Shown in pieces: positions 26,664 through 57,069 of a stretch of 64,000 bases of DNA. The notes below the pieces were generated by a model, which had not been told where the DNA came from, ran no database searches, and saw nothing but the letters and a program-made list of their open reading frames with translations. The translations under genes and the position numbers were made by a program. The DNA is taken from IMG/VR virus record IMGVR_UViG_2595698595_000001, positions 64,001-128,000 of that record. The stretch is one strand, 5' to 3'. Origin of the DNA: a virus (Duplodnaviria > Caudoviricetes). The number at the start of each line of letters is the position of its first letter. The stretch's first letter is position 1.

Positions 26664-27470
26664 ATGAAAACTATAAGTCAATTATACGAAGGTGTATCAA
26701 ATGAATTAGTATTTAATTTTGATCAAGACTCAGAATCTGATATCATATTATTGAATACTGGTTTGAAGAAATCTGATATGTTTGATTCAGTATTTCATTT
26801 TTCTTACGAATTTACAGATAAAGCTAGTTCATCTGACAGAACTAAGTTCTTTAACGAATTTAGATTTGGTGCTAATATAAGTAAAACTGACAGTAATAGA
26901 TTTATTTCTACAGCTATATCAAGATTAGATAAAGAAATAGATTTAAGGAAATTCGACGCTATAGTTTTACCTAGATCAAGGTCTGAAATCAATTCAAGAA
27001 TGCTAAAATTCATTACTAGAACATCAAGAATTAAACCTTTCAGTTTTGAACTAGTCAAAAAACAAACATCTGACATTAATTTCGACATAGATCGATTTAC
27101 TGACGAAGTATTGAATTCGACTGTTATGATGGGTTCGAAAGAAAGACCTAGATATACCGATAAACAAAAATCTGAAGCTTTACAAAAAATGAAAAACATT
27201 ATAGATTCTGTTAGAAAGTCTGATTATTTCAGTATAGCTGAATCTATCAAAACTAATAAACTAAAAGAATATGTTGAGGAATTCTTAGAATTTGAAAACG
27301 AAGAATCTAAAAATACTTACGAAAAATTAAAAGATAAGAACATTCTAGTAATCGATGATGTTACGACAACAGGTTCTACGATAATCGAAATAATCAAAAC
27401 TTTACAAGCTGTAAACAGATCAAATAAGATAGTTATCTTTTCGTTAATAGGTAAACCAAATCTTATGTAA
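26664..27470 (+). CDS. type I phosphoribosyltransferase-domain protein with MKTISQLYE leader
   Basis: PRPP-binding loop ILVIDDVTTTGSTI. Confidence 0.75.
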   Translation: MKTISQLYEGVSNELVFNFDQDSESDIILLNTGLKKSDMFDSVFHFSYEFTDKASSSDRTKFFNEFRFGANISKTDSNRFISTAISRLDKEIDLRKFDAIVLPRSRSEINSRMLKFITRTSRIKPFSFELVKKQTSDINFDIDRFTDEVLNSTVMMGSKERPRYTDKQKSEALQKMKNIIDSVRKSDYFSIAESIKTNKLKEYVEEFLEFENEESKNTYEKLKDKNILVIDDVTTTGSTIIEIIKTLQAVNRSNKIVIFSLIGKPNLM

Positions 27471-27476
27471 AAATAA

Positions 27477-27519
27477 AAACCCTCGGAAACTGAAACTTTC
27501 GAGGGTTTCGTAGTATAAT
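27477..27519 (+). repeat. hairpin/early-promoter repeat, copy 2
   Basis: AAACCCTCGGAAACTGAAACTTTCGAGGGTTTCGTAGTATAAT. Confidence 0.85.
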
Positions 27520-27594
27520 TACTTTATATAAATAAAGTAATTCGATTCGTTTAGAATCTATATACTTATTAATAAATCTTTAAATTATACTTAT

Positions 27595-28020
27595 ATGTCA
27601 ACTTTAAAACAACTTTCGAACCCACTTAAATTAAAAGGTAAATCTCACAAAGCGATTTACGATATCAATTACCAAATCAATAAAGGAATCGTAACACCTA
27701 ATAATCTTTCTGATATTACAGAAGATACTAAAGAAATCAATTTCAGATCAGGTGCTGACGATGTAAGAAATGCTACAGTTTTCGAAAATGATAGAATCGT
27801 TAGTTCTTGTGATGTAGGGCGTGGTTTATATCTTACTGAAGATGGAATAGCTTATCTTGTTTCACCTTACTGGGTTTGGGATTCACTTTTACGTGATAGT
27901 ATCAGAAATCATAACTTATCAAGAACTGAAATCCTTGAAATGGTTGAAGCTAATTGTTCAGCTAAAGGTACAATTTCTGGTAAAGTTATTACAATTACTC
28001 ACATCAATACTTCAAACTAA
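27595..28020 (+). CDS. hypothetical early protein
   Basis: 141-aa ORF after the promoter repeat. Confidence 0.6.
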   Translation: MSTLKQLSNPLKLKGKSHKAIYDINYQINKGIVTPNNLSDITEDTKEINFRSGADDVRNATVFENDRIVSSCDVGRGLYLTEDGIAYLVSPYWVWDSLLRDSIRNHNLSRTEILEMVEANCSAKGTISGKVITITHINTSN

Positions 28021-28538
28021 TGAAAACTTTATATAGCACACTCTTAGATGTTCTTTCAGAAACAAAAATGTTCGAACATGCTATGGACCGAAAATTCGTA
28101 CTGAACAGAATATTTAACAATAGTCAAAATCTAGTTAATCATTTATTGAAAACTATATTTTTTCCAAACGATTATTCTGTAAATCATTGGGAAGATGAAG
28201 TAGTAAATGTCATTGAAAAACATGTGATTGGTTTAGTTAAATCAAAGGTATCTGCTAAACAGTACTACGAATTTTTGATAGCGAAACAATATTCAAAAGG
28301 TAAAAACTTATCGATTGATGAGATTTATCGATTATTTAGAGTACATTTAAAAACTGAATATACTGAACAGTATATGAAAGATTTCGATTCACTTAAATCG
28401 GAATATTCTAGTATCATTTTGGAGAATCTTAAAAACTTCTTTACAGAATTATCAGAACTGTTAGAAACTAAAAACACAAAAATAACAGAATCTGAACTTG
28501 TTAACTTAACTAAGGCGTTCAATTCGATCAAGGAATAA
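28020..28538 (+). CDS. DUF29-like helical protein
   Basis: LVNHLLK...HWEDEV pattern; MKTL...MFE N-terminus. Confidence 0.4.
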   Translation: MKTLYSTLLDVLSETKMFEHAMDRKFVLNRIFNNSQNLVNHLLKTIFFPNDYSVNHWEDEVVNVIEKHVIGLVKSKVSAKQYYEFLIAKQYSKGKNLSIDEIYRLFRVHLKTEYTEQYMKDFDSLKSEYSSIILENLKNFFTELSELLETKNTKITESELVNLTKAFNSIKE

Positions 28539-28543
28539 TATTT

Positions 28544-34816: not shown

Positions 34817-36078
34817 TGATAAAAGAAATAATACACCCAACTTTAGAAGCTAAACAAATAATTGTAAGAACTGACAAAGATGAGGATATTGAAGTTCTTG
34901 AGAAAGTAGTTGGTAAAACTTATCCACTGATAAGAGTACTTGACAGAACTATTAATATCGATCAAATTCAGGACTTTAGATACAAAATAGGAGCTTCGTT
35001 ACTTCCAGAAATATCTTTGATTATAACTGACGAAAACAATCGTTTGCGTGAGAAATTGAAAACAAATATCGATACTATAACGGTTTATCTGAGTAATAAT
35101 ATCGATGGTTCGTTTTCAAAACAGGAATACATTCTTTCTACTGTATACAGCGATCCAGGTGATGACAATTTGTCAATGAGGGCTATTCTTTACGTACCAA
35201 ATCTTTTCAAACGTGAAATGAGAGCTTTCCAATCGAATTCTATAGATACGATAAAGGAAATATGTTCTGAAGTAGGATTGGGATTATCAAGTAATTTCAC
35301 TCCATCTGATGAACAGGTAAGATTACAAGATAATATTACTAATATCGATTTTATTCGTAATACTGCGGAATCCTCACAGTGTCTAGCAGTTCATATGTTT
35401 ATAGACCAATGGTCATATTTAAATGTTATCGATATTAAGAAAGCTCACGAAACTAATGACGTAATCGAATATACAGTTAACCCATATTCTGGAATCGATT
35501 TAGAAGAACCACAGAATCTAGTATTATCTAACAATTATCTAAAAACTGATATCGTTGGGAAAATAATGTTTTGGTCAGTAAATGATTCTTACGGAATCAA
35601 ATCTTTATCGTATGTTAGTTTATACGATATCGAAAACTTTGATTTAGTTGAACTTGATAAAACTGATACAGTACAGATAACAGCTGAATCTGAAGAACTT
35701 AGAGCAGAAAAACGTAAGTTACTTGTCAAAAGTGATAACGTTTGGGATGGATATTTTCAATCTAAGTATTATGGTAATTTCGTTAAAGATACTTTGAATC
35801 AATCAGCAGAATTAATCGTTAGAATGCAATATCCGTTACATGCTATTCATCCAGGATTATCATTACCTGTTGAAATCTTTAACACTCAGAAAAGAACGAA
35901 TTCGTATGATCAAGAAGATGAAAACTTATCTATCGAAGAAATGCCTCAAGAAACGGGTGATGAAGCTAGGAAATTAGTTAAGAACGAATTGTATTCAGGT
36001 CAGTATTATGTTCGACAAGTTGAAATGAACTATAACGAAAACATAATTGAACAAACACTTTATCTGAAACAGATTTAA
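34816..36078 (+). CDS. baseplate hub protein (gp27-like)
   Basis: Follows gp53-like gene; IKEICSEVGL, LYSGQYYVRQV...Y...QTLYL terminal motif. Confidence 0.55.
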   Translation: MIKEIIHPTLEAKQIIVRTDKDEDIEVLEKVVGKTYPLIRVLDRTINIDQIQDFRYKIGASLLPEISLIITDENNRLREKLKTNIDTITVYLSNNIDGSFSKQEYILSTVYSDPGDDNLSMRAILYVPNLFKREMRAFQSNSIDTIKEICSEVGLGLSSNFTPSDEQVRLQDNITNIDFIRNTAESSQCLAVHMFIDQWSYLNVIDIKKAHETNDVIEYTVNPYSGIDLEEPQNLVLSNNYLKTDIVGKIMFWSVNDSYGIKSLSYVSLYDIENFDLVELDKTDTVQITAESEELRAEKRKLLVKSDNVWDGYFQSKYYGNFVKDTLNQSAELIVRMQYPLHAIHPGLSLPVEIFNTQKRTNSYDQEDENLSIEEMPQETGDEARKLVKNELYSGQYYVRQVEMNYNENIIEQTLYLKQI

Positions 36079-36102
36079 TACATATTCTTATAAAACAAAG
36101 CT

Positions 36103-36247: not shown

Positions 36248-36631
36248 ATGAAAACATTAGTTCAACTTTTCGAATCTAAAGATTATTCTAAGAACGATTT
36301 AGCTCTTATCGCTAAAGACACTATCGAAAGAATGTCTACAAAACGTTTAACTGATATCGAAGCTAAAATAAATTCGAATAACTCTTTATCTATTTCAGCT
36401 AAATCGGATGGTAAAGCTTTTAGTTTTAGTCTAAGATTTGTAGTTAAAACTAGAACGGTTAGTGATAAAGTTTCAGACTATGAGATTATCGTTATTACAG
36501 AAGGTTCGAATATCAATAGTACTAATTCGTTAAAACAATATAAGAAGTTACATGAAATGATATTCCTGAAATCTACTTTCAAGAATGAAATCACTTCAAC
36601 TGTTATCAAATCACTTCAAGGGAAATTCTAA
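36248..36631 (+). CDS. leader-tagged putative internal head protein
   Basis: MKTLVQLFES. Confidence 0.65.
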   Translation: MKTLVQLFESKDYSKNDLALIAKDTIERMSTKRLTDIEAKINSNNSLSISAKSDGKAFSFSLRFVVKTRTVSDKVSDYEIIVITEGSNINSTNSLKQYKKLHEMIFLKSTFKNEITSTVIKSLQGKF

Positions 36632-37029
36632 TGAAAACACTTTCGAAATTATACGAAGCTTTCGTAGAAAAAGAAATCGATACTAATTCTAATACGATAC
36701 ATAGAATAATAGCTGACGCTTTCAGAAGATGTGTATCAGTTGGTGAAATCAAGAGACTTAGAAATCTTGAAAGTTTAGAAATAGAAACTAACGGTAACGA
36801 ACATAAAGGTTTACTAGAATTCGAAGCTACAGTAAATCATGTAGAAAGAAAATTCAAAGCTCTTTATTCAGTAATCGATTCTAACGAAAGGATAAAAATA
36901 TCTATTATCATAAACCTTATAAACGAAGAAGTTTCTAGCATAAACGAAGAATTAGTAATCGAAGGAATTGACTTACAGAATCAAGTTATTCTGTTAGTTG
37001 AAAAATTATTACGTAATATAGAAATATAA
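36631..37029 (+). CDS. leader-tagged putative internal head protein
   Basis: MKTLSKLYEA. Confidence 0.65.
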   Translation: MKTLSKLYEAFVEKEIDTNSNTIHRIIADAFRRCVSVGEIKRLRNLESLEIETNGNEHKGLLEFEATVNHVERKFKALYSVIDSNERIKISIIINLINEEVSSINEELVIEGIDLQNQVILLVEKLLRNIEI

Positions 37030-37030
37030 A

Positions 37031-37696
37031 ATGAAAACAATATCAAAACTATACGAATCGAGACTTAACGAAAACTTGAATACAGAGTTATCATACTTTG
37101 CTAACGTAACTAAAGTTTCTAAAACATTTTTAGAAACTTTACCAAAAGTACAAAAAATAATAGATTCACATTATCCATCAAGTAAGTCTAAACTAATACT
37201 CGAACCATCTTTCTATACTGATTCGGTGAAAGTTTCTATAGGTAATGACAAATGGGGTTATGGATATTCATATGCTAGCAGTTATACAAAAACCCCTGAT
37301 CAGAATATGTTAGCTTTATGTTCTGAATTGTTTGATCTTAATGCTTTCGATTCTGTTGCTATAAACAATGGTACATTGAATTTATCGATCAGTTTCAATG
37401 ATTCAGCATCGTTACGAAAGAAAACTTTAGATAGTATTAAGAAATCAAAACTTGACGATTCTAAATTGAATTTTATAACACCTAGAAATCGTGATAATGT
37501 TTATCTTTATATTGACAATGTCTGGGTAAGTGCTCATATAATGGAAGAGGGTGGTTCTAAAATAAAATATGTTTTAGATAAACCTGACCCTGTAACTAAA
37601 GAAAGAGTTTTCTATGCAGACATGAAATCGTTTGTTTTTTCTGACCCATTAAAGGTTAAGAATTATGATAATGATTTAATTTTCTGGAAACCTTAA
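37031..37696 (+). CDS. leader-tagged putative internal head protein
   Basis: MKTISKLYESRLNE. Confidence 0.65.
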   Translation: MKTISKLYESRLNENLNTELSYFANVTKVSKTFLETLPKVQKIIDSHYPSSKSKLILEPSFYTDSVKVSIGNDKWGYGYSYASSYTKTPDQNMLALCSELFDLNAFDSVAINNGTLNLSISFNDSASLRKKTLDSIKKSKLDDSKLNFITPRNRDNVYLYIDNVWVSAHIMEEGGSKIKYVLDKPDPVTKERVFYADMKSFVFSDPLKVKNYDNDLIFWKP

Positions 37697-42025: not shown

Positions 42026-42031
42026 TACATA
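42024..42031 (+). promoter_or_regulatory. late promoter variant AATACATA
   Basis: Heads a cluster of five leader-tagged genes. Confidence 0.6.
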
Positions 42032-42050: not shown

Positions 42051-42512
42051 ATGAAATCACTTACAAACTTATACGAAAATAAGCTTAACGAAGCTTCAGG
42101 AACTTTTAGCTCTTTGGAATCTAATATGAATTCTTCTATAGATTCTGTAAAGAATCATATTGATTCGGAATTAAAGGAGCTTTTAGCTAAACAATCTAAA
42201 ATAAAGGATGCTAAATCTAAGACTGCTAAAGCTATTAAAGTAATTGAAAATGTTCTTCCAGAATTTACAGAATTACATGCAACTTATAAGATCATGACAT
42301 TCAATGACAGTATTTGCATAGAATTTACTATTCCTAGTGAAATAATGAATGACAAAACTTCGAATATAAAGAAAGATGTTGTTTATTTCAATAATTTCAT
42401 TAAAGCTAATAAATCGGAACTGGATAAAACTTTTAGTTTTGCTGGTGTAACTAGATATAATTCAGAATTCTCCGGAAATAGCTATAGTGATTTAATACTA
42501 GTTCTTAAATAA
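42051..42512 (+). CDS. leader-tagged putative internal head protein
   Basis: MKSLTNLYENKLNEA. Confidence 0.65.
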   Translation: MKSLTNLYENKLNEASGTFSSLESNMNSSIDSVKNHIDSELKELLAKQSKIKDAKSKTAKAIKVIENVLPEFTELHATYKIMTFNDSICIEFTIPSEIMNDKTSNIKKDVVYFNNFIKANKSELDKTFSFAGVTRYNSEFSGNSYSDLILVLK

Positions 42513-42520: not shown

Positions 42521-42796
42521 ATGAAATCACTTACGAAATTATACGAATCTAAACTTAACGAAAGTGAGGAAATCGACAAAGTAAAAATGAAACAGGCTTT
42601 GGTTACTTTTCAGAAGTCTAACGATCTAATAAAACTTGAAAAAGACTTACTAGCACTTAATCCATATAAAAACGGTATACAATACAATGCTTATATTGAC
42701 TGGATTAATGACAATATCAAATGGTATAAGAACGGTGATACTTATGTATTTTCTTTAACAAGCTCCGGATCGGTTCTTAATTCGTTAGACGATTAA
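42521..42796 (+). CDS. leader-tagged putative internal head protein
   Basis: MKSLTKLYESKLNES. Confidence 0.65.
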   Translation: MKSLTKLYESKLNESEEIDKVKMKQALVTFQKSNDLIKLEKDLLALNPYKNGIQYNAYIDWINDNIKWYKNGDTYVFSLTSSGSVLNSLDD

Positions 42797-42799: not shown

Positions 42800-43426
42800 A
42801 TGAAAACTCTTACTTCCCTACTATTCGAATCTTACAATTCTGACATAAGGAAACTTGAGTTAAAGCTTCAGTCTTTTGGTTATACTGTTCGACATGATAC
42901 AAGTAGACCAAAAGGCTTTGCTTTAGAAATTAGATTACCTAAGGATCAGTTATATGTACCTGAGGATTTAGAAATACTTTCTAAGAACTTGGAAGCTTAT
43001 CCTAATCTTTTAATGATCGATGCTAAAGTCGGGGAAGATAAGAATTACGTAGATTTCATCTTTCCAGTAACAGAAAGATTCGTTGATAAAGTTTATCATG
43101 TAACTTCTAAGAAATGGATAGAATCGATAACTGAAAAAGGTTTATTATGTTCTAGACCTACTGATGCTTCTGATAACATTAAGAAACATGAATCAAAAGA
43201 ATCTTTCAGAGATAGAAAATACAAAGCTGTTTTCGTAATATCGAATTTAGAAGACGCTAAGAAAGTTTCTAAGATGTTCGACTTCGAAGAACCTCAACTT
43301 ATCGAATTAGATACAAAGAATCTTAAATTTTTCGAAGATCCAATGATGCCTGAAGAAATGGATTCATTAGTTCATTTCGATGACATAGAACCAAAAAGAA
43401 TAATTAACATAACTGACATTAAATAA
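42800..43426 (+). CDS. leader-tagged protein with ADP-ribosyltransferase/Tpt1-like C-terminal domain
   Basis: MKTLTSLLFES; VYHVT...IESITEKGL...AVFV...DIEPKRI. Confidence 0.6.
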   Translation: MKTLTSLLFESYNSDIRKLELKLQSFGYTVRHDTSRPKGFALEIRLPKDQLYVPEDLEILSKNLEAYPNLLMIDAKVGEDKNYVDFIFPVTERFVDKVYHVTSKKWIESITEKGLLCSRPTDASDNIKKHESKESFRDRKYKAVFVISNLEDAKKVSKMFDFEEPQLIELDTKNLKFFEDPMMPEEMDSLVHFDDIEPKRIINITDIK

Positions 43427-43428
43427 AC

Positions 43429-43806
43429 ATGAAAACAATATCAAAATTATACGAAGCTAGTTCGGATTTCCAAATGATAGAATTCGAATCGATTAAAGCT
43501 ATAGAATTAGCTATAGCTAACTATTCAGCCTCGGTTAAGGGCTTACAACAAGAAGTAACAAGCATTAAGAATCATTTATCAAAAATACTTGGAAACAAAG
43601 TATCAGACATTAAAGATCTGAATGCTTCTTTAACTGCTGAAAAAGGTATTACGTACATAGAGGTACAACTTCAAGCTGATAAAGTTGAAAAATTTGGAAT
43701 GGAGGAAAGTAAAGCCTTTTCAAAAGTTTTACAAGCTAAAGGCATTACTAAACATAAAACCCAATTTGTCGGAACTAGTTCAATGTACATTACATTATAT
43801 TTCTAA
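43429..43806 (+). CDS. leader-tagged putative internal head protein
   Basis: MKTISKLYEA. Confidence 0.65.
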   Translation: MKTISKLYEASSDFQMIEFESIKAIELAIANYSASVKGLQQEVTSIKNHLSKILGNKVSDIKDLNASLTAEKGITYIEVQLQADKVEKFGMEESKAFSKVLQAKGITKHKTQFVGTSSMYITLYF

Positions 43807-43808
43807 AC

Positions 43809-44180
43809 ATGAAAACTCTATCAAAACTATTCGAAGATCAAATCTTTAACGTTTCTTCAGTTTCTCAGTACTATCGAGAAAATATAGATTTACTGTTACC
43901 AGCTAAAGAAGTTCTTGACGAAAAGGATATTCAAATAGCTAAAGATAGAATTCTGAAAGAAAAAGAAGTTTTACCTAAGGGTCATAAGTATCTTATGATT
44001 AATGAAGCTCAGACATTAATGTTTATGGTTCTAGAACTTCAAGGTTCTAGATATCATGCAGTTCTTACAAGTGATACTGAGAGTACTGTATTTCAGACAT
44101 TAATAAACTGGGAACATGTTGAAGAATATGTCAAAGCTTTAGGATTAGATTTCGATTATTTCAAAGAATCGAAACTGTAA
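43809..44180 (+). CDS. leader-tagged putative internal head protein
   Basis: MKTLSKLFED. Confidence 0.65.
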   Translation: MKTLSKLFEDQIFNVSSVSQYYRENIDLLLPAKEVLDEKDIQIAKDRILKEKEVLPKGHKYLMINEAQTLMFMVLELQGSRYHAVLTSDTESTVFQTLINWEHVEEYVKALGLDFDYFKESKL

Positions 44181-44231: not shown

Positions 44232-44295
44232 GTTAAATAACTAAAGTTACCAAAAATTGCAATTATACATATTTCATTATCCCAAACTATAAAAT

Positions 44296-46050
44296 ATGTT
44301 AGGTTACAATAGAAACGCAGGTAGACCCAATTCTGGGAATCTATCAAAGAAATTCAGTAAATTAGGACCGATTATCAAATCGATTGGTAACTTCGGTATC
44401 GTCATAAATAAGAAAGTTCTTGACAAAAAGACTGCTATACCTGAAGACCCAAGATTAGAAGGTGACATTTATTCGATTCTTGATACGATTGGAACTCGTT
44501 CAATGAATCAAACTTCATATCCTCAATATAATCAAAACGATCAAGTACAAAGACAAGCTAGACGTTGGCATTTAATTACAATGTCTAAACATCCAGAACT
44601 TGAAGATATTATTGAAACGTTAACTGATGAAGCTATTGTATATGATAAGAATGCTACTTACTGCTGTTCTGCTATTCTAAATACTTTGATGTTAGACGAA
44701 AAGATAATTAGTTCTAAAGATTCTAAAGACCTTGAAGAATTAGTTACAGAAAAGTTCCCAGCTTTATATAGAATGTTAGGTCTTTATAAATCTGGTGCTA
44801 AATCTTTGATGCAAGAATGGTTAGTTGAAGGTAAGAAAGCTTGGGAGATTGTATACGATTCATTAGATAATCCTAAATCGATTATAGGTTTAGTTCCGAT
44901 AGACCCATTATCATTAATTGAACATTGGGATGAAGATGGTAACAGATGGTGGATTCAGGAACCAAATCTTACTCAACAATCTAGTGCTATGGGTGTTACT
45001 AGAGCTATGGGTGGTCAAAGAACATTACATGACTCACAGGTAATATATTGGGATTGGGACCCAACAGGATTTAAGTTTTCTTATCTTGAAAGACTTTTAA
45101 GAACGTTTAATGTTTACCGAGCTATCGAAAGAATGAAAGTTAACTGGTGGGTTATGAACTCTCAGTTTAGAACTATGATCGTTATTCCAACTCATGGTAA
45201 ATCTAGACAACGCGCTGCTGAGGTATTAGCTGCAGCAATGCAAAGATATCGAGATCATGTTGAATTCTCTGATGAAGATGGAACGGTTAAAGTAAATGGT
45301 TCAGCGAACATTCCAGCGAATAAGGAATATTGGTTAGCTGATACTTCGTCTGGAAAACCTGAAGTTTCTACAGTAGGGGGTGACGGATATGACTTGTCAA
45401 GTGCTGATACTTCATGGTCTAAACGAAATCTGTTAGAACTTTCTAAAGTACCTTTGGATAGATTCGACCCTAGTTCTTCAGAATCATGGAATCTTGACCC
45501 AACATCTTCAAGACGTCAAGAATTGAAATTCGCTAAGTTTGTCCAAACGTTAAGAACTTCAATGTCTGAGATAATGCTAAAACCTCTGATTATTCAAATA
45601 TGTTTAGATCGCCCTAATCTGACAAATAATTACGAATTACTTGATGCGATTACTATAGATTTCTTATCTGAAAACATCTTTACTCAAAAGATCGAAATGG
45701 AAATCATGAAAGAACGTACTGAATTCATTGGTGAAATGATGGACAAGCTTAAACGTGTTGACGCTGACGGTAACGAAAAACCTTTCTTCTCTTTGAAATT
45801 CTTGATGGACAAATACATGATGTTAACTCCTGAAGAACTTGAACAAAATGCGAAAGCTCTTAAAGAAGAGGAAAAGGAAATGGAAGAATTCAGTAGAAAA
45901 CAGAATACAATTTCAGCTGAAATGGAAGCTGAGAAAGCTGAATATACAAAAGAATTCGAAGAAGATGATTCTAAATCTTTATACGAATCTATAAAGGCTA
46001 AAAGAATCAAACGGAAAACAACAAAAGACATTACAAAATACAGAATATAA
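44296..46050 (+). CDS. gp20: portal protein
   Basis: MSKHPELEDIIETLTDEAIVYD, WLVEG, SYLERL...N, EYWL, KVPLDRF, ELKFAKFV..LR; late promoter 44264-44271. Confidence 0.9.
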   Translation: MLGYNRNAGRPNSGNLSKKFSKLGPIIKSIGNFGIVINKKVLDKKTAIPEDPRLEGDIYSILDTIGTRSMNQTSYPQYNQNDQVQRQARRWHLITMSKHPELEDIIETLTDEAIVYDKNATYCCSAILNTLMLDEKIISSKDSKDLEELVTEKFPALYRMLGLYKSGAKSLMQEWLVEGKKAWEIVYDSLDNPKSIIGLVPIDPLSLIEHWDEDGNRWWIQEPNLTQQSSAMGVTRAMGGQRTLHDSQVIYWDWDPTGFKFSYLERLLRTFNVYRAIERMKVNWWVMNSQFRTMIVIPTHGKSRQRAAEVLAAAMQRYRDHVEFSDEDGTVKVNGSANIPANKEYWLADTSSGKPEVSTVGGDGYDLSSADTSWSKRNLLELSKVPLDRFDPSSSESWNLDPTSSRRQELKFAKFVQTLRTSMSEIMLKPLIIQICLDRPNLTNNYELLDAITIDFLSENIFTQKIEMEIMKERTEFIGEMMDKLKRVDADGNEKPFFSLKFLMDKYMMLTPEELEQNAKALKEEEKEMEEFSRKQNTISAEMEAEKAEYTKEFEEDDSKSLYESIKAKRIKRKTTKDITKYRI

Positions 46051-46718: not shown

Positions 46719-46916
46719 ATGAAAACATTAACACAATTATATGAATCTGTAATCGATGATTCGGATAAAGAATTTTTGAAATCGGAATTGAAACATATCG
46801 ATAATCAAATAGATAAGCTTATGAAGTTATCAAAGATATCTGATAAACAACAAGCTTATTGGGATAAGCTAGAGCTTGATAAAAATGAAATTATAGAACT
46901 ATTGAAAACAAAATGA
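46719..46916 (+). CDS. leader-tagged small protein
   Basis: MKTLTQLYES. Confidence 0.65.
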   Translation: MKTLTQLYESVIDDSDKEFLKSELKHIDNQIDKLMKLSKISDKQQAYWDKLELDKNEIIELLKTK

Positions 46917-47383
46917 AAACGTTAGTTCAACTATTCGAAGACTTATCACTCGATGTATCTAAAGCGATACGTCGAGAACTTGATACAAATTTCAAAGGGT
47001 TTCGTAAACATCAGAATCGTCATGATATCGAAGCTTTAATTGGTGATGCTATGAGAAACTCAGCTTTACCTTTTATAAGACATGCAGCTGAATACGTAAC
47101 TCCTGATAAATTCAAATCTGGTAAGCATATTAATTCTGGATATTGTGTTCAATTCGCTGAGTATATTTTAGATCATGTTCATTCTCGTAACGTTAAGATG
47201 ATGGGTGATGTCGATCATCATGTAATGTTGAAAGACAACGTAACAGGTCTTTATTATGACGCTGAGCATCCAGATGGTATAACTTTAGAAGATTTCCGTA
47301 ATACTACATGGATGAAAAATCCTGACAAAGTTGTACAGTTCTTAAGAAACAAAGAAGTTAAGGAAATTGATTACATGCAATAA
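46913..47383 (+). CDS. leader-tagged protein with putative Cys-His-Asp catalytic triad
   Basis: MKTLVQLFED; NSGYCVQFA...HHVML...YYDAEHPDG. Confidence 0.6.
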   Translation: MKTLVQLFEDLSLDVSKAIRRELDTNFKGFRKHQNRHDIEALIGDAMRNSALPFIRHAAEYVTPDKFKSGKHINSGYCVQFAEYILDHVHSRNVKMMGDVDHHVMLKDNVTGLYYDAEHPDGITLEDFRNTTWMKNPDKVVQFLRNKEVKEIDYMQ

Positions 47384-47407
47384 CTTTATACATATAAAAA
47401 CAAATCA

Positions 47408-48148
47408 ATGAAAAATATATCCATAATATCAAGTATTGACAAACGTTCAATGCTTTTCGAAGCTGTAAGTGACGGATTAATACCAGTACCTGATGGTATG
47501 ATGCGTGTTTCTGGAGTAATAGCTAAGATGGACGTTATGAATAATAACGGACGTTTTTATACTAAAGAAAACTATACAAAACATATTGATTCTATTCAGG
47601 ATAAAATCGCTACCGGTCTTTATGGAGAAATGGAACATCCTGATAGCTTTAATATCAATTATAATAACGTTTCTCATAAAGTTGAAAAACTTTGGTATGA
47701 TCATGCTACCGATGAAGTCAAAGGTATATTTCTACTTTTAGATAACGAAAAAGGTAAAACTGCTCAAGCTATTGTTAAATCTGGTGGTACTCTTAGATGT
47801 TCTACTAGATGTGCTGGTGATGTAGCGAAAGGTAATGAAGCTCGTATAAGTAAATTCTATACAGTCGATTTAGTCGGTACTCCTGGATTCGATGAAGCTA
47901 AATTATTCTTGATGGAATCTTTAGATTTTACATCTAAATCAAATAGTTCAGATATTAAACTTTTGAATGAAGATGATAACAGTATTGTATATGTTTCAGA
48001 ACTTAAACAAATGCTTTTAGAATCTAAGAAATATGTAACTAACGATTCAGCTTTATTAGAAGCTTTAAATGAAAGAACTAATCTAGTTTCTTCGAAGGAA
48101 TCTAAGAAGCTTTATGAATCTATTAAATCGAAAATACTTAAACGATAA
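47408..48148 (+). CDS. gp21: prohead core protease
   Basis: NNNGRFY, GEMEHP, VSH, G..A, CSTRCAG, DLVGTPGFDEA; late promoter 47387-47394. Confidence 0.9.
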   Translation: MKNISIISSIDKRSMLFEAVSDGLIPVPDGMMRVSGVIAKMDVMNNNGRFYTKENYTKHIDSIQDKIATGLYGEMEHPDSFNINYNNVSHKVEKLWYDHATDEVKGIFLLLDNEKGKTAQAIVKSGGTLRCSTRCAGDVAKGNEARISKFYTVDLVGTPGFDEAKLFLMESLDFTSKSNSSDIKLLNEDDNSIVYVSELKQMLLESKKYVTNDSALLEALNERTNLVSSKESKKLYESIKSKILKR

Positions 48149-48150: not shown

Positions 48151-48984
48151 ATGAAAACATTAACACAATTATATGAAGCTATAGTTATATCTAAAGATTA
48201 TCCTAAATTTGATTCGTCTAATAAAGATATCGAAAAATATCTTCTAAATATTGCAAACGAATTAAAGAAATCTGAAGGTTTTAACAAATATAGAGGGGTT
48301 TACGATTTTAAAAGCAGATATAACTACGGACAAGGAATAATAGATCATACTGTAATACTCGAATGGTCTGCACCATTATCAGAATGTTTTAAATCTTTAG
48401 GTGTATCTAAATCTGAAGCTATATTGATTTCAGATTTAGGTAAGAATGCTGAAAAGCTAACAACTATCAAATTTAAATTACAGGTACATATTCGTGAAAA
48501 AATATCATCTGATCAAACTATCGATAAATTTGAAAACTATTACAGTGGTACTTTAGACGCTACTATTTATAATCATAATTTCAGTAGAATAGTTTCGTAT
48601 ATGTCTGGATATTATTCTGGTGGTTCTGATGATAAGTATACTTACGATAGAACACAAGAAAGCTTTGATAAGTCTGATAGAATTTTCGATTTAATAAATT
48701 TCGTAACTAGTAATATCAACGCTTATAATAAAGAATACAATCCAGTTTTGATATCATCTAACAGTTCTATTCTTAGTAATGAAGCTTCTTCAGTTTATTC
48801 TAGAATATCAAAAAATAAAACTGACAATTTATACGACTTTACGGATTTTATTAAGAAACATGGTGAAGCTAAACTTTTAAATCTATTAAAGAAATCTTCA
48901 ACGTTTAAAGCTTTCTTAGATAAGGATCATTATAAAGATGGTATCTTATCGAAAACTTCTATCTGGTCAGAAACATACGATTAA
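48151..48984 (+). CDS. leader-tagged putative internal head protein
   Basis: MKTLTQLYEA. Confidence 0.65.
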   Translation: MKTLTQLYEAIVISKDYPKFDSSNKDIEKYLLNIANELKKSEGFNKYRGVYDFKSRYNYGQGIIDHTVILEWSAPLSECFKSLGVSKSEAILISDLGKNAEKLTTIKFKLQVHIREKISSDQTIDKFENYYSGTLDATIYNHNFSRIVSYMSGYYSGGSDDKYTYDRTQESFDKSDRIFDLINFVTSNINAYNKEYNPVLISSNSSILSNEASSVYSRISKNKTDNLYDFTDFIKKHGEAKLLNLLKKSSTFKAFLDKDHYKDGILSKTSIWSETYD

Positions 48985-48993
48985 ACTATAAAA

Positions 48994-49305
48994 ATGAAAA
49001 CGATAAATCAATTATACGAAGCTAAGCTTAATGAAGCTTATGGTACAGAACATCTCGAAGATCAAAATGCTGAATTAGGTGCATTAGTTAAAGACTTAAA
49101 GGATGTAAAAGTTGGGAAAACTTACTGCATTGTAGATTTAGGTTTAGAGGAATGGAATTCTGGATATAAACTTAAAGCGATAAAAGGTAATATGTACATC
49201 TTTGACGATTTACTAGGTTCTCCTTTAGATAAAGAAGTTTTCGAATTTACTAGAGGTGACATTTTAGAATTAATATATGACAAAGCTATAGCTTTCGAAA
49301 AATAA
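48994..49305 (+). CDS. leader-tagged putative internal head protein
   Basis: MKTINQLYEAKLNEA. Confidence 0.65.
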   Translation: MKTINQLYEAKLNEAYGTEHLEDQNAELGALVKDLKDVKVGKTYCIVDLGLEEWNSGYKLKAIKGNMYIFDDLLGSPLDKEVFEFTRGDILELIYDKAIAFEK

Positions 49306-49312
49306 AAACAAA

Positions 49313-49735
49313 ATGAAAACAATATCAAAATTATACGAAGCTAAATTAAATGAAGCTTCAAACTATGATCCATACGAATGGGGTGAAACTGTAATGAAGG
49401 CTGTTAAATCGTTAGCTTCATCTTTGAAACTTAAAGATATTAAAATCCATGAAGCTCATTCTGATGATGGCGAAGGTTACGGTCATGGTATAATCGATTT
49501 TAAGAAAGATGGTGTACCATATTATATCGATTATCATATAACTCTTGAATTACATCATGGACTAGAATTAGGTGATTTAGAAATCCAATTAGGTGTTTAT
49601 GAAGATTCTGATGAACCATATGCACCAAATGATGACGTTGATAAAACTTTCAAGAAAGTTTCTGGTCAAGACGAACCAAAGGTTATTTCGAAAATGGTAA
49701 CAGATTTCTTGAAATCTACTAAAGTTTTGAAATAA
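49313..49735 (+). CDS. leader-tagged acidic putative internal head protein
   Basis: MKTISKLYEAKLNEA. Confidence 0.65.
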   Translation: MKTISKLYEAKLNEASNYDPYEWGETVMKAVKSLASSLKLKDIKIHEAHSDDGEGYGHGIIDFKKDGVPYYIDYHITLELHHGLELGDLEIQLGVYEDSDEPYAPNDDVDKTFKKVSGQDEPKVISKMVTDFLKSTKVLK

Positions 49736-49796: not shown

Positions 49797-50824
49797 ATGT
49801 CTAAAAATAATCTAACAGTTGCTCAAAAAGTAAATGCGCTTGTTGAGTCACATATCAAAACAAAATTGATTCCAGTTTTACAAGAGAATCAAAAACAAAT
49901 GTTTGCGATGATCGATCAACATCTTATGGAGAACTTCGGTCCTGCTGTAGTTGCTTTCATTAAAGGTAAAGGTCAAGCTCTTAACGAATCTCAAAACGAA
50001 GAGATTACAAATTCTTTCCGTAATTTCCTTTTGGAAAATGCTGAAGAGGATGTAGCTGAAGAAGTTAAAGAACTTGAAGATAAACTTGAAGACAAGAAAG
50101 AAGAACTTGAAGATTTGAAACTTGAAGAATCTAAACTTGTTAAGAAAGCTAAAGCTTTAAACGAAGCTAAGGATGAAGCTCACGAAGATGAGGAATTATC
50201 TGAAGAAGAAGAAGAAGAAATCATTGATGAAATCGAACTTCAAGAATCTTTGAATACTAAATCACTTACTAAAGTTCGTCGTAAAATGAAACTTGTTGAA
50301 AGTGAATTGGAAGAAATCGCTGACGAATTACAAGATTTAGGTGCTATGGCTACTGAAGATACTGGAATTCCAGCTGATGAAGTTGAATTATCTGAAGAAG
50401 AATTGGAAGAGCTTGAAGGTGAGGAACTTTATGAAGCTTTGAAAACTCGTGTTGCTAAGAAAAGTAAACGTAATGGTAGTCTTTTAGAATCTATCAAAAA
50501 CGATATCGCTAAAGCAAAACGTCTTGACGCAAAAAAAAAGTAAACAAGCTTAACGAAAACGTTAACGAAGATACTAACGTTCTAAAAAATATTCCTGATG
50601 AATTTAAAGCTTTATATGAATCTTTAAGTCCTGAAGCGAAAGATGTTTTAAACGAAAATGCTAGAAATGCTAACCTTGATACGTTATCAGGAGTTCGCAA
50701 CTTCTTTCAGAATACAAACTTCAAAAGCTTACAACAACGTAATGCTTTGAATAAGTTAAATGAAAGTCAAGAAACTAAGCAATCTGGATTAGCGTTTGTT
50801 ACTAACTTACTTAAACCATTTTAA
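49797..50824 (+). CDS. gp22: prohead scaffold protein; frame 0 stops at 50543, -1 frame continues to 50824
   Basis: Acidic coiled coil directly upstream of MCP; late promoter 49754; A9G run before TAA then a 94-codon ATG-less open frame. Confidence 0.7.
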
Positions 50825-50914: not shown

Positions 50915-52672
50915 ATGTCTTTTAAATATACTAGGATTAATCCTGCACAAGCCCAGAAAAAATGGGGTGCTAAATTAAACGAATCTTTCGAGTCTATCAA
51001 AACTCTTCCAGGTTTTGCTAACAAGATGAATATGATTTCGAAACTTGCTGCTATTAAGGAACTTAATGACGGTGGAGTTAACAAGGGAGAACGTGCTCTT
51101 ATGGAGAACTATCAAATCTCTGGAACTGGTGATATTCTTGGAATGGGTCCATCTACATGGCCTTCTGATCCAGGTACTGCTCCAGGAAATGAAGAAGGTG
51201 CTTGGACTAAACCAACCTACAAAAAAGGTTCTGGTGATGTTCCTTCAATGATCTTCGGATTAGCGATGAACGTTGCTGCTTACACTGTAGGTTTCGATAT
51301 CGTTCACACTATTCCAGTTGATACTCCGACAGCAGCTTTCCAATTCTTGGATTCTATTTACGCTGGTGGTAAACTTAACGAAGCTGGAAATCCTCCTTCT
51401 TACATGAAAGTAAGTTCAGTTAAACTTCGTGCTGGATTCGATTACAGTACTTTGGTTAAAGGTGGTCATGTATTCTTCAAAACTAAAGGAGATGATACTG
51501 CAGTTCATGGTATTTTCATGGGTAAATCGTTCTTCGATGGTGGTTTAATGATCAAACTTGAATCTACTGGTACTATCGCTACTAACGTTTATACTAAAAC
51601 TGATGCTATCTCTGTAGCTGATGTATTTACTGACGCTGGTGTTGAAGTAATTCCTGGTTCTTCTGCTACTGCAGTTGATGGTACTGCTTTAGATATCGAA
51701 GTTGCACAAGCTGAATACGTTGAATCTTTCCGTGAACATGTACAAGGTTTCACTAACAGTGACCAAATTACTCCACGTTCTATGGATAGAGCAACAGGTG
51801 AGCAAGGAACTCGTTCAGTATTGAACTTACGTTTATGGTCAACTTCTTTGGAAATGCGTACAGTTGAAGTACTTGCTGATATCACTAAAACTCAGTTGAA
51901 AGACTTAAGTGCATATGGTATCGATGGTGTTGCTCAGTTGTACAAAGCTTCTCAAAACGAATTGATTCAGTCAATTAACGATGAGATCATAACTGAATTC
52001 ACTCGTTTAGGTGTTACTAACCACGCTCAATTATTCGCAGCTCAAAACTTGAACTTGAACTTATTTATCGCTCCTGCTGGAACAGCTAATAAGCCTTTGA
52101 CTCAGTTTAACTACGGAGAATTCAAAGACGTTCAAGGTGTTGATCGTGCAGCTGAATTTGGTAATATCATAAACGCTGAGAATAACTCTGCAGCAGAAAA
52201 TACTTACACTCGTCAACGTAGAATTTACTCTCGTTTATTAGCCGCTTCAGCTATTATCGGTACAATTTCTCGTTACGGTTCTGGTGATGTTGCGGTAGTT
52301 GGTCCACAAACAGCAGTTGCGTTACAAGATTCTAAATCTTTCACTGCAGTTCCAATGGAAAACAACTTAGGTTCAACAGCTGATTTACATTACATTGGTA
52401 ACGTAAATGGTATCCGTATCTATGTTAACCCTAAATGGTCATGGGATGATAAACGTATATCTGTTGGACGTCAAGGTCAAGACGATCAACCAGGTTTGAA
52501 ATTCTTTGCTTACGATTTAGCTAGCTCTGTAGAGGTTATCGATTCTTCTACTTACGCTCCTAAAATCTGTGTTACTTCACGTTTCGCAGTTCAAGCATGT
52601 GGTTTCCATCCTGAGGCTTCTTACTTAACTTTCGTTGTCAACTCCGATTTCGGTGGTGATACTTGGGTATAA
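50915..52672 (+). CDS. gp23: major capsid protein
   Basis: T4 gp23-like: KKW...LNES N-arm, P...P.A..F....Y, QLKDLSAYGID, NELIQSINDEII, G.VNG.RIYVNP, STYAPK....SRF. Confidence 0.9.
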   Translation: MSFKYTRINPAQAQKKWGAKLNESFESIKTLPGFANKMNMISKLAAIKELNDGGVNKGERALMENYQISGTGDILGMGPSTWPSDPGTAPGNEEGAWTKPTYKKGSGDVPSMIFGLAMNVAAYTVGFDIVHTIPVDTPTAAFQFLDSIYAGGKLNEAGNPPSYMKVSSVKLRAGFDYSTLVKGGHVFFKTKGDDTAVHGIFMGKSFFDGGLMIKLESTGTIATNVYTKTDAISVADVFTDAGVEVIPGSSATAVDGTALDIEVAQAEYVESFREHVQGFTNSDQITPRSMDRATGEQGTRSVLNLRLWSTSLEMRTVEVLADITKTQLKDLSAYGIDGVAQLYKASQNELIQSINDEIITEFTRLGVTNHAQLFAAQNLNLNLFIAPAGTANKPLTQFNYGEFKDVQGVDRAAEFGNIINAENNSAAENTYTRQRRIYSRLLAASAIIGTISRYGSGDVAVVGPQTAVALQDSKSFTAVPMENNLGSTADLHYIGNVNGIRIYVNPKWSWDDKRISVGRQGQDDQPGLKFFAYDLASSVEVIDSSTYAPKICVTSRFAVQACGFHPEASYLTFVVNSDFGGDTWV

Positions 52673-54986: not shown

Positions 54987-56267
54987 ATGAAACAATTTAC
55001 GTTGCAGGAGCAATCAATGCTTGATTTACATAACTTAGGTCATTCGGTTTCAGAAATAGCTGATATCATTTTTGAAACTGACAATAACGAAAAATTCACT
55101 CGAGATCAGTTACGTAGAAAAATTCGAAGAATACTAAAAGTACATAAAACTTCTCTAAACTCCGAAAAAGAAAACTTAAATCGTTTCAAGTCTGAAAATC
55201 CAGACATATACGAAGCGTTACTTGAAGAATGTGAAACTGCCGGACTAGATATAAATCTTGTCAATCATTTCTGGTATAAGTCAGAAAACTTCTCGATTAA
55301 CATGTCATCAGCTAGGAAAACTAATGACGAAATTCTCAAAGACTTTATAAGTTCAGTTTCTAAAATCGTTAAGAACATTAAAGCTGAAGCTGATACTTCA
55401 GTTTGGGATAACGTTTACAAAGCTAAAACTTTTCAGTTAGAATCGTATTCTGATGAGAAATCTGGTAAGTTATTAGTACCTTCGATATTCGATTTACATC
55501 TTGGTAAACTTGCTGATTTCGATGAAACTGGTGAGGAATACAACTACAAAATAGCTATTGAACGTTTCAATAACGCTATTGATGATTTAATACAAAAGAC
55601 TATTTCTTTTAATCCTGAAAGAATACTATTTCCAGTAGGTAACGATTTATTCAATTCTGATAAAGCTTTCCCATATTCTCAAACTACTGCTGGAACCCCA
55701 CAACATGATGATTTACGATGGCAAAAGATGTTTGTTCTAGGAAGACAATTAATATCGAATGCGATAACAAAACTTTCTGTAATAGCACCCGTTGATGTCG
55801 TTACTGTATTTTCTAATCATGATCATGAAAGGGTATTTTATCTAGGTGATGTTTTAGAAGCTGTATTTAGTAATAACGAAAGAGTAACTGTAGATAACTC
55901 TCCAAAGGGTAGAAAATACTATCAATGGGGTAAATGCATGATAGGTTTAGCACATGGTCATAATGAAGCTGTAGATAGACTACCACTTCTAATGGCTCAA
56001 GAACAACCTAAAATGTGGGCTGAGACTTATTATCGTGAGTGGTTATTGGGACATTTACATCATAAGAAAAAGTATATGACGGAACAAACTAAAGATTACA
56101 ATGGTGTAATAGTTACGTTTCTATCATCATTAAGTGCTACTGATGCTTGGCATTATTCTAAAGCATTTTCAGGTTCTATTAAATCAGCTGAAGCTTTCGT
56201 TTACGATAAGATACATGGACATGTTGGTACAGCAGTTCATAGCATTTATAACGAAATGACAGCTTAA
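54987..56267 (+). CDS. calcineurin-like phosphoesterase with N-terminal HTH-like region
   Basis: DLHLG, GNDLFNSD, SNHD, HGH, GHLHH. Confidence 0.8.
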   Translation: MKQFTLQEQSMLDLHNLGHSVSEIADIIFETDNNEKFTRDQLRRKIRRILKVHKTSLNSEKENLNRFKSENPDIYEALLEECETAGLDINLVNHFWYKSENFSINMSSARKTNDEILKDFISSVSKIVKNIKAEADTSVWDNVYKAKTFQLESYSDEKSGKLLVPSIFDLHLGKLADFDETGEEYNYKIAIERFNNAIDDLIQKTISFNPERILFPVGNDLFNSDKAFPYSQTTAGTPQHDDLRWQKMFVLGRQLISNAITKLSVIAPVDVVTVFSNHDHERVFYLGDVLEAVFSNNERVTVDNSPKGRKYYQWGKCMIGLAHGHNEAVDRLPLLMAQEQPKMWAETYYREWLLGHLHHKKKYMTEQTKDYNGVIVTFLSSLSATDAWHYSKAFSGSIKSAEAFVYDKIHGHVGTAVHSIYNEMTA

Positions 56268-56294
56268 TAATACATATTCTTAAATATCTTAAAA

Positions 56295-56537
56295 ATGAAA
56301 ACGTTAACACAATTATACGAAGCTGAAGAAATTCCAGCAAAAAGAAAATTCTTTGTAAGTCAAAGAGGTGTTGCTGACTTTAAGAAAGATTTGAAGATGA
56401 ACGGTATGAAATATGAAGAACTTAAAGGTAACAATTTCATACTTGATAATTCAAATCCTGGTAAGGTAAACATGGCTGTAAAAATGGTAAGGGAACGTGT
56501 AGGTTCTCAAAATATCAAAGAAAAATTCGATTTTTAA
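56295..56537 (+). CDS. leader-tagged small basic protein
   Basis: MKTLTQLYEA; AATACATA at 56269. Confidence 0.65.
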   Translation: MKTLTQLYEAEEIPAKRKFFVSQRGVADFKKDLKMNGMKYEELKGNNFILDNSNPGKVNMAVKMVRERVGSQNIKEKFDF

Positions 56538-56539
56538 TC

Positions 56540-56881
56540 ATGCCAGTCTGGTTAAAGGAACAACCCAATAACTTACAGATACTTCATTCAGAACTATTAG
56601 ACAACTACGTTCAGTCATGGATTGAACGTAGTTTTCAAATCATTCCACCACATTCTATGGATACGAATTACATTACATGGAAATGTTTCGGATGTTCTAA
56701 ACCATTATCTGTAAAATTCGATTCAGTAAATCATAAAGATTTCTGTTGTAAGAATTGTAAACATTTTGCAGTAGGTAAACCTAATGCTATAATGTTACGT
56801 TTTATGTGGTCGTTTAATATGCACATACAATCAAGAATCATAAACAATTCAGCTAATTTGTCTGAATTACTAGAACAATAA
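56540..56881 (+). CDS. putative zinc-ribbon protein
   Basis: CFGC...CKNC. Confidence 0.5.
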   Translation: MPVWLKEQPNNLQILHSELLDNYVQSWIERSFQIIPPHSMDTNYITWKCFGCSKPLSVKFDSVNHKDFCCKNCKHFAVGKPNAIMLRFMWSFNMHIQSRIINNSANLSELLEQ

Positions 56882-56883
56882 AA

Positions 56884-57069
56884 ATGAAAACATTAAAGTC
56901 AATGTTCGAGTCAATCATCAAGGATGATATGTCTCCGATATATGATAAAGCTAAAGACAAATCATATAACAAGAAAACAAATGACAATTCTGAAATGTCA
57001 CCAACTTATGACAAAGTTAAAGCTGGTAAGAACAAATCAGACGATTACGAAATGTCACCAACTAAATAA
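56884..57069 (+). CDS. leader-tagged 61-aa repeat peptide
   Basis: MKTLKSMFES plus three MSP(I/T) repeats. Confidence 0.6.
   Translation: MKTLKSMFESIIKDDMSPIYDKAKDKSYNKKTNDNSEMSPTYDKVKAGKNKSDDYEMSPTK

Follow-up and report, generated by a model that had tools for sequence, protein, structure and literature searches.

In bacteriophage T4 a short amino-terminal leader borne by otherwise unrelated internal proteins (IPs) acts as a capsid targeting sequence (CTS), a principle that belongs to the textbook biology of this phage (PMC3012670, PMC9026906). The relevant passages of one review state that ten amino-terminal residues of IPIII are enough for uptake into the head, that residues 4 and 7 mainly drive targeting and residues 8 and 10 processing, and that the protease gp21 cuts after the Glu of L/I-x-E (PMC9026906). 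The T4 record has ipII and ipIII beginning MKTYQEFIAE/A (here and below a slash inside a sequence marks the cut after Glu or the place where one is predicted) and ipI beginning MKTFKEF. The T4 CTS is the classic route by which proteins are carried into the next host and is also an engineering tool; it has hardly been charted beyond the T-even phages. Other passages of that review describe phiKZ, 201phi2-1 and SPN3US as phages whose head is loaded with many ejection or inner-body proteins, trimmed after the Glu of a three-residue motif by gp175/gp245, which are related to gp21; the motif there is S/A-x-E, and no common amino-terminal leader is mentioned in them (PMC9026906). The subject of the present analysis is a nine-residue leader that heads unrelated genes in a 64,000-nucleotide stretch of viral DNA (Duplodnaviria; Caudoviricetes), bases 64001–128000 of the 219,372-bp IMG/VR record IMGVR_UViG_2595698595_000001, which comes from an uncultured virus. 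This whole stretch is called the window, and coordinates are window positions unless prefixed by g, which denotes a genome position.

This leader would be the phage's own T4-type capsid-targeting and processing sequence, placed on ~21 unrelated genes, a reading to which we assign a probability of roughly two in three (0.68). The sequence tests that support it are the match to the T4 CTS, the L-x-E sites of the capsid and scaffold proteins, the depletion of such sites in the tagged proteins (the cargo), covariation in relatives, and a shared position and promoter motif. An earlier note on this DNA had gone further and proposed a virion-packaged, injected effector system; the T4-like targeting and processing tag finds support in several independent sequence tests, whereas presence in virions, cleavage after the Glu, injection and an anti-defence role are predictions. 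The analogy to the T4 tag that the note had drawn stands, with the M-K-T start, hydrophobic residues at positions 4 and 7 and the L-x-E end. As in T4 IPI-III and Alt, (L/I)-x-E is followed by a small residue, the leader sits on otherwise unrelated proteins, and the genome has a gp20/gp21/gp22/gp23-type head module with a motif-dense scaffold. Unlike in T4, the leader is nine residues long rather than ten, with L-x-E at positions 7–9 instead of 8–10, and in seven genes a second site, (K/R)LNE, follows in tandem. The genes number ~21, about five times more than the three IPs plus Alt of T4; the head operon contains many of them. The hosts probably belong to the Bacteroidota, and the system is a prediction from its genes.

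Sixteen open reading frames (ORFs) of the window, 61–277 aa long, start with MK(T/S)(L/I)xx(L/M)(Y/F)E, one of them (42800) with one extra residue, and five (37031, 42051, 42521, 48994, 49313) add a second (K/R)LNE; starts, lengths and second sites are as the earlier note had listed them. The six-frame translation of the genome holds 19 matches to MK[TS][LIV]x(2-3)[LM][YF]E, all 19 at the first ATG of a + strand ORF, and the back-translated DNA pattern gives 19 forward matches, 0 in reverse and 0 with a reversed-pattern control. The near variants MKTLTKIYE (g175238) and MKGLHNLYEAKLNE (g200549; MKGLHNLYE) bring the genome total to 21 genes, which is ~7% of its genes (21 of ~290). Sixteen are inside the window and the others are at g9332, g146167, g159561, g175238 and g200549. 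Across the whole set lengths run from 61 to 347 aa, and predicted mature sizes from 6 to 38 kDa with isoelectric points (pI) of 4.6 to 9.7. Position 4 is Leu or Ile in all 21 and position 7 is Leu in 19, the others being Met in 56884 and Ile in g175238; all leaders end in x-E, and the next residue is Ser or Ala in 16 of 20. The double leader, x-(K/R)-L-N-E directly after the first Glu, is found in seven genes, two of them outside the window (g9332 and g200549). The motif [LMI][YF]E occurs 116 times in the 69,191 aa of 292 ORFs, so that ~0.5 proteins are expected to have it at any given position; it starts at residue 7 in 19 proteins. The leader set is far beyond chance. Three weaker variants that had been added to it, at 28020, 24586 and 615, are present as written and are uncertain members of the set.

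The record has 31.3% G+C, is complete by CheckV estimate with ends classed as linear, and carries 287 of its 292 ORFs (simple ORF set, whole genome) on the + strand, where the head genes, the sixteen leader genes of the window and the promoter motifs located below also lie. The portal protein belongs to the T4 gp20 family (44296..46050; Pfam Portal_T4, E 3.9e-88), the 246-aa prohead protease to family S77, that of T4 gp21 (47408..48148; Peptidase_S77 E 4.3e-10, phrog_207 E 5.9e-44), and the major capsid protein to the gp23 family (50915..52672; Pfam Gp23, E 1.7e-13). In BLASTP the protease is 23% identical to T4 gp21 over 116 residues (E 6e-9), with GELNHP and SSR of gp21 aligned to GEMEHP and STR of the protease, motifs that we take to hold the catalytic His and Ser. 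The protease scores 39.9 bits with Peptidase_S77 (cut-off 27) and 22.5 bits with S80, under the cut-off of 23.4. A T4-type prohead is thus indicated by an S77 protease, a Portal_T4 portal and a Gp23 capsid protein found together. The features of the phiKZ type, an S80 protease, an S/A-x-E motif and a phiKZ-type capsid protein, contrast with the S77 protease, Leu at the third position before the cut (P3) and Gp23-family capsid protein found here. A 248-aa protein (49797..50543; pI 4.6) matches no Pfam or PHROGs family and is read as the scaffold or core protein, analogous to T4 gp22, because it is acidic, as dense in [LIM]xE as gp22, and placed in the head module.

The cut motif is concentrated where a gp21-type protease would be expected to act. 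The scaffold has 16 [LIM]xE sites in 248 aa, compared with 1.64 per 100 aa genome-wide, and T4 gp22 has a comparable density (16 [LI]xE in 269 aa). When 292 ORFs were ranked by density of L-x-E-(S/A/N/G), the scaffold came first with 11 sites (binomial p 2.5e-10), and the protease, with 5 such sites, was also within the top four. The protease carries LFE/A at residues 16–18 and six [LIM]xE in its carboxyl-terminal tail (residues 168–237), four of them L-x-E-(S/A). The capsid protein has KLNE/S with L-x-E at residues 21–23 and LME/N at residues 62–64, and its KLNE at residues 20–23 repeats the sequence of the second leader site. Among 22 aligned capsid relatives, with identities down to 40%, all have E64 and at least 90% have E23. 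A capsid propeptide of ~64 residues is predicted from these sites and would match that of T4 gp23. At P3, all 11 scaffold sites and all 5 protease sites have Leu, as do 19 of 20 leaders.

The cargo shows the opposite trend. Within 20 tagged proteins, counted from residue 17 onward (2,781 aa), LxE[SANG] occurs once where 6.5 are expected from the rate in other proteins (Poisson 0.011; 0.0018 of 5,000 resamplings of 20 size-matched proteins), the single site being at residue 25 of the g9332 product. Plain L-x-E is also low (13 compared with 21.7 expected), and two control motifs are undepleted: ExL[SANG] is found 4 times with 4.4 expected and LxD[SANG] 4 times with 4.5 expected.

Two further ORFs rank high in cut motifs. 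The 418-aa acidic protein of 24586..25842 (+ strand, pI 4.1), one of the weaker variants named above, is a possible further protease substrate whose membership in the leader set is uncertain. It begins MKKSQELLNSLYE/S (...LNSLYE/S), has a tandem LFE/SKLNE/E at residues 360–368, 13 [LIM]xE sites and 7 LxE[SANG] sites (p 2.4e-4, within the top four of the same ranking), and it matches no Pfam or PHROGs family. Its gene adjoins those of a family-B DNA polymerase encoded in two parts (19441–20904, phrog_2062/262 for the amino-terminal part; 23329–24543, phrog_1918/262 for the carboxyl-terminal part), between which stand the unassigned ORFs 20904, 21397, 21848 and 22452. A 135-aa ORF at g6180–6587 with 5 L-x-E-(S/A/N/G) sites ranks second of the 292 (p 4.9e-5); an ORF resembling a membrane protein and leader gene g9332 are found downstream of it.

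By capsid protein (tblastn) the closest named phages are the Tenacibaculum phages pT24, PTm1 and PTm5 (36–37% identical), then Chryseobacterium phages MA9V-1/2 (31%), Flavobacterium phage MaF61 (30%) and the Prevotella Lak megaphages; a Bacteroidota host is likely by this phage kinship alone. Closer relatives, with capsid proteins 76–82% identical, are found in unnamed assemblies. When the head module was compared with 50,697 phage records by megablast, nothing matched, and a capsid protein search of IMG/VR found no related loci, only PTm1 being recovered when the capsid alignment was the query. PTm1 and Lak are placed in a T4-related subgroup of jumbo phages in the part of a survey that deals with them (PMC7824862).

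The ORF starts of five genomes were searched with a single regular expression that covers T4-like leaders of nine or ten residues. It matched 20 of 287 here, 7 of 283 in pT24, 5 of 269 in MA9V-2, 1 of 301 in PTm1 and 1 of 191 in MaF61, with a rate of 0.2–0.5% at internal Met; unsupervised clustering of amino termini recovered the same leader sets. The MA9V-2 set comprises 6 ORFs that start M-(K/R/Q)-(T/N)-F-x-x-(F/I/T)-(I/V)-N-E/(S/A), for example MKTFTYFINE/A and MKNFFSFINE/A, and one of its leaders heads an 82-aa gene between portal and protease, as does that of the 65-aa gene here. The pT24 set comprises 6–7 ORFs that start M-x-x-(I/L)-x-x-Y-(I/L)-x-E. In both phages the leader has ten residues, the T4 length, and is borne by about a third as many genes as here; as far as our searches show, neither set has been described in print. 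If the leader and the head proteins are read by a shared protease, the ending of the leader is predicted to change together with the sites of the phage's own scaffold and capsid. In the 1207-aa protease-scaffold of MA9V-2 the dominant motif is I-N-E-(S/A), with Ile at P3 in 11 and Asn at P2 in 14 of 19 sites; the MA9V-2 leaders have Ile at P3 in 5 of 6 and Asn at P2 in 6 of 6, and the capsid protein has FINE/A at residues 21–25. The protease is fused to a motif-rich scaffold-like tail in PTm1 (564 aa, 24 sites), pT24 (527 aa, 23 sites) and MA9V-2 (1207 aa, 19 sites), whereas here protease (246 aa) and scaffold (248 aa) are separate genes with three leader genes between them.

The leader genes are interleaved with head genes, as the earlier note had reported. 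The order is portal, a 221-aa ORF, leader genes of 65 and 156 aa, protease, leader genes of 277, 103 and 140 aa, scaffold and capsid. In the T4 record it is 20, 67 (80 aa), 68 (141 aa), 21, 22 and 23, and because the two orders correspond, the 65-aa gene (46719..46916) and the 156-aa gene (46913..47383), both between portal and protease, occupy the places of T4 genes 67 and 68. The three between protease and scaffold are a 277-aa orphan (48151..48984) and two genes with double leaders ...LYE/AKLNE/A, of 103 aa (48994..49305) and 140 aa (49313..49735). The 221-aa basic ORF directly behind the portal (46052–46717, pI 9.1) matches phrog_2859 (E 9e-40, function unknown), and PTm1 has a 277-aa ORF at the corresponding place just behind its portal.

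The motif [AT]ATACATA has 77 occurrences and stands a short way ahead of the genes for portal, protease, scaffold and capsid, and of many large genes that look structural. All 21 leader genes have it as the closest promoter-like motif on their upstream side, compared with 189 of 287 genes overall; note that the 21 leader genes form ~11 promoter units and are therefore not independent in this count. The five sites that the earlier note had named as late promoters are real copies of this promoter-like motif. The copy at 36077..36084 heads the cluster 36248–37696, made up of a 127-aa gene without Pfam or PHROG family (36248..36631, MKTLVQLFE/S), a 132-aa gene (36631..37029, MKTLSKLYE/A) and a 221-aa gene with the double leader MKTISKLYE/SRLNE/N (37031..37696). 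The copy at 42024..42031 heads the five-gene cluster 42051–44180, in which a 153-aa gene directly behind the motif (42051..42512, double leader ...LYE/NKLNE/A) is followed by genes of 91 aa (42521..42796, double leader ...LYE/SKLNE/S), 208 aa (42800..43426, MKTLTSLLFE/S, one residue longer), 125 aa (43429..43806, MKTISKLYE/A) and 123 aa (43809..44180, MKTLSKLFE/D). The copies at 44264..44271 and 47387..47394 precede the portal and protease genes, and that at 56269..56276 is directly followed by an 80-aa leader gene (56295..56537). The remaining leader genes of the window are a 61-aa gene (56884..57069, MKTLKSMFE/S) and a 268-aa gene (26664..27470, MKTISQLYE/G).

Some neighbours and one distant member of the set deserve mention. 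Directly behind the cluster 36248–37696 a gene at 37707–38192 codes for a protein with a TnsA-like endonuclease amino-terminal domain (E 7.8e-16), which may mark a mobile or homing element beside a variable locus. Two tandem GmrSD_N (DUF262-type) genes are found at 28544–29101 and 29104–29736 (E 1e-13 and 7e-13), the first of which begins MKTLTLSDFLKE/N, a possible longer leader variant. The 21st leader gene, MKTLTKIYESLS (g175238–175915, window-equivalent 111238–111915), has an in-frame TAG at codon 13. Past this codon no further stop interrupts 212 codons, and the frame leads into the ORF called at g175430; the gene is closely preceded by an [AT]ATACATA motif and a hairpin. None of the 6 tRNAs found is a suppressor for this TAG, which may reflect a nonsense mutation, read-through or an error of assembly.

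If the leader is a T4-type tag, a sequence of events can be proposed. The tagged proteins would be made together with the head gene products, and the leader would direct them to the scaffold core while the prohead assembles. The gp21-type (S77) protease would then cut after the Glu of L-x-E, and also after the second L-N-E where there is one, so that the mature protein is freed. The mature proteins (6–38 kDa) would survive in the head because they have almost no internal cut motif, and the scaffold would be chopped up. Most of them would then probably be expelled into the host with the DNA, as are T4 IPI-III and Alt.

The identity of the cargo was approached by similarity and structure prediction. 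Nothing in it scores above threshold against Pfam and PHROGs, the only near-threshold case being the phosphoribosyltransferase (PRTase) loop of the 26664 product, and for 48151 only the protein itself was found among 5.8 billion proteins. The proposal that the cargo includes enzyme-like domains is firm for the 26664 product only and yields weak leads for those of 42800 and 46913. An AlphaFold2 model of the 26664 product from an 82-sequence alignment has a predicted local distance difference test score (pLDDT) of 90.4, with only residues 1–8 under 50. Foldseek against the PDB gave 42 matches at E<=0.001; all of those listed have the PRTase fold, led by Helicobacter pylori ComF (7p0h) and followed by HPRT, APRT and PyrR. 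Pfam Pribosyltran scores 25.2 bits, just under its cut-off of 26.3, over the loop 212–257, and D231 and D232 are invariant in the 82 sequences. The mature part is thus modelled as a ComF/HPRT-like PRTase fold with a phosphoribosyl-pyrophosphate-binding loop, its activity being a prediction, and in the model the leader lies outside the fold. An exhaustive search of metagenomic protein sets found 354 homologous representatives at E<=0.001, and tblastn of this protein against 50,697 deposited phage genomes found no match. For the 42800 product the ESM Atlas gives PARP on 16% of the cluster at score 0.88 and Tpt1/KptA at TM 0.43/0.67; a single-sequence AlphaFold2 model is poor (pLDDT 39.7), and a PDB sequence search returned one chance-level row. 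An ADP-ribosyltransferase/Tpt1-like fold is therefore a weak lead. For the 46913 product the ESM Atlas gives Phage_YunG-like at score 0.90 with 172 shared features, and Peptidase_C93 and Transglut_core3 are among the structure rows; a YunG-like/transglutaminase-type fold is likewise a lead only. Most of the cargo is orphan in these searches, which would fit fast-evolving host-takeover or anti-defence factors.

Several observations weigh against the proposed tag. The exact leader is found in this genome only: IMG/VR holds 0 contigs with it in several genes, and PTm1, one of the closest named relatives, has essentially no such leaders, the leader DNA pattern giving 0 matches in both PTm1 and pT24. 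The DNA pattern hits 26 IMG/VR contigs, of which 3 carry the peptide expression and none has it in several genes; these are taken as chance matches because each is single and none is multi-gene. The double-leader pattern has 0 matches in IMG/VR and 14 single matches in JGI metagenomes, mostly within longer frames or heading frames of 9–43 aa, and two JGI matches, nearly identical to each other, stand at the start of the same 168-aa ORF; all 14 are treated as chance or doubtful. A profile built from 18 leaders (40-aa pieces, 5.8 billion proteins, 8,000 word-sharing candidates scored), a weak search, returned only 12 of the phage's own proteins. The cargo depletion points the way predicted for proteins that would survive beside an active protease, and its numbers are small (1 against 6.5). 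The ORF sets come from a simple first-ATG caller and not from a gene finder. The motif [AT]ATACATA also precedes DNA-metabolism genes, namely an exonuclease gene and a gene with a P-loop motif, which we take to be nucleotide-kinase-like; for this reason the late class of the promoters, itself inferred, is not secure.

The family of the 26664 product was considered as proof of cleavage and rejected, and it has to be added to these points. In its full-length homologues Gly follows the leader in 95 of 102; Glu stands before it in 56, of which 51 have a hydrophobic P3, and Ser, Ala, Cys or another residue takes its place in 39. The E/G junction is thus partly a family trait, and the family is ambiguous for cleavage because Gly and Glu are widespread and many prefixes have only 3–8 residues. 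A whole prefix of T4-CTS form is present in 4 of the 102, query included (for example MKTFNQFIDE/G). Two family members have an extra amino-terminal part of 138–175 residues joined at ...LYE/G or ...KLE/G. Outside this family, a 135-aa ORF on a short, unrelated metagenome contig (L040:738-1142, 41% G+C) starts MKPLKELFEIKLNE (MKPLKELFEIKLNEA...) with a leader-like double site, and may be a chance match or a distant user of the same tag.

The alternative that survives best keeps the capsid-targeted, protease-cut tag and changes the purpose of the cargo, which would consist mainly of parts for prohead-core assembly or DNA packing, like gp67, gp68 and IPIII, instead of effectors acting on the host. 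Two leader genes stand at the T4 67/68 places and three more between protease and scaffold, no recognisable anti-defence family is found in the cargo by Pfam and PHROGs, and the review counts what T4 IPII and IPIII do among the unsolved questions (PMC9026906). Against this, twenty unrelated orphans with pI 4.6 to 9.7 are hard to see as structural parts; at least one (26664) has an enzyme fold; the cargo avoids internal cut sites, unlike the scaffold; and 48151 lacks a homologue though relatives with capsid proteins 76–82% identical exist, which looks like turnover. As an account of the whole set this alternative is unlikely, and a core or packing role is a serious alternative for some or many of the tagged proteins, most plausible for 46719 and 46913, which by the T4 analogy of their position may be core proteins like gp67 and gp68.

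Much less credible is an origin of the shared start at the level of RNA or DNA, as a start context that works without a Shine-Dalgarno sequence, the site of a translational regulator, or a recombination cassette behind a promoter. Codon 2 is AAA in 19 of 19 leaders, the upstream sequence is A/T-rich without a ribosome-binding motif, and starts with MK- are common in the genome (MKT 25, MKI 9 and MKS 8 of 292); shared leaders could moreover help recombination, which is compatible with a targeting tag. The peptide is nevertheless kept while the bases vary: Thr3 is ACA, ACT or ACG, Leu7 is TTA, CTT or CTA, Tyr8 is TAC or TAT, Leu alternates with Ile at position 4 and Tyr with Phe at position 8. 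Since synonymous codons differ at kept residues, conservation acts on the peptide and not on the DNA, and it extends to residue 9, in 7 genes to residue 14, far past a start context. Such an origin would also leave unexplained the L-x-E and KLNE sites of capsid and scaffold, the depletion in cargo, the covariation and the match to the T4 CTS.

A shade less probable again is that the leader is read by another machine, be it a modifying enzyme, a chaperone or translocase, or a secretion route, with a final Glu that is no protease site. The genome encodes AAA-type ATPases, and the consulted part of the jumbo-phage survey raises the speculation that folded proteins enter heads by the action of BCS1-like ATPases (PMC7824862). 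However, a radical-SAM domain has 0 matches in the genome (the control was positive in 14 of 14 genomes), the leader has neither a hydrophobic core nor a lipobox, and the cut-site logic that runs through capsid, scaffold, cargo depletion, the relatives' leaders and covariation is specific to the head protease. Least probable of all is descent of the proteins from one family, as strongly diverged paralogues with the shared start as their best-kept helix. The tandem clusters 36248–37696, 42051–44180 and 48151–49735 look as gene duplication would make them, but no pair is similar past the leader (best all-against-all BLASTP E 0.15 with the first 10 residues removed, in keeping with the earlier note), the lengths differ widely as given above, and 26664 belongs to a large PRTase-fold family mostly without the leader (CTS-like prefix in those 4 of 102) and has its leader disordered and outside the fold in the model.

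With the T4-type tag as the preferred reading, a wider proposal can be made, which is possible and on the doubtful side: that the phage has a plug-in cargo system in which leader-bearing proteins are loaded, trimmed and injected, the cargo being rapidly renewed orphan effectors against Bacteroidota defences that include a PRTase and possibly ADP-ribosyltransferase-like and transglutaminase-like enzymes. The polymorphic internal-protein loci of T-even phages are read in the passages cited from the review as defence-countering cargo, and as described there their variety is that of many phages compared at one or two loci (PMC9026906), whereas here ~21 bodies are found in one genome, in ~11 promoter units. 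No description of leader libraries in Bacteroidota phages or T4-like jumbo phages was found in the portions of the literature covered, supplements lying outside the search. If the wider proposal is true, no larger set of capsid-targeted proteins would have been described from a single genome, and the leader would be a ready packaging tag for engineering Bacteroidota phages.

The principle is already known from T4; what is new is an unusually large set in a distant giant phage, three times that of its nearest cultured relatives. The tag and the motif of its protease can here be read from sequence alone, with the T4 logic scaled up about five-fold, and a three-part test made of scaffold enrichment, cargo depletion and covariation of leader with head proteins is transferable to other phages. 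The cultured relatives MA9V-1/2 and pT24 are phages in which the model is checkable; a published virion proteome of a relative was looked for and not found, the virion proteins of MA9V-1 having been examined only by polyacrylamide gel electrophoresis in sodium dodecyl sulfate (SDS-PAGE), as stated in the portion consulted of PMC10537231. The ~21 proteins that are candidates for injection, hardly any of which has known relatives, make up a list for screens of defence and counter-defence in Bacteroidota.

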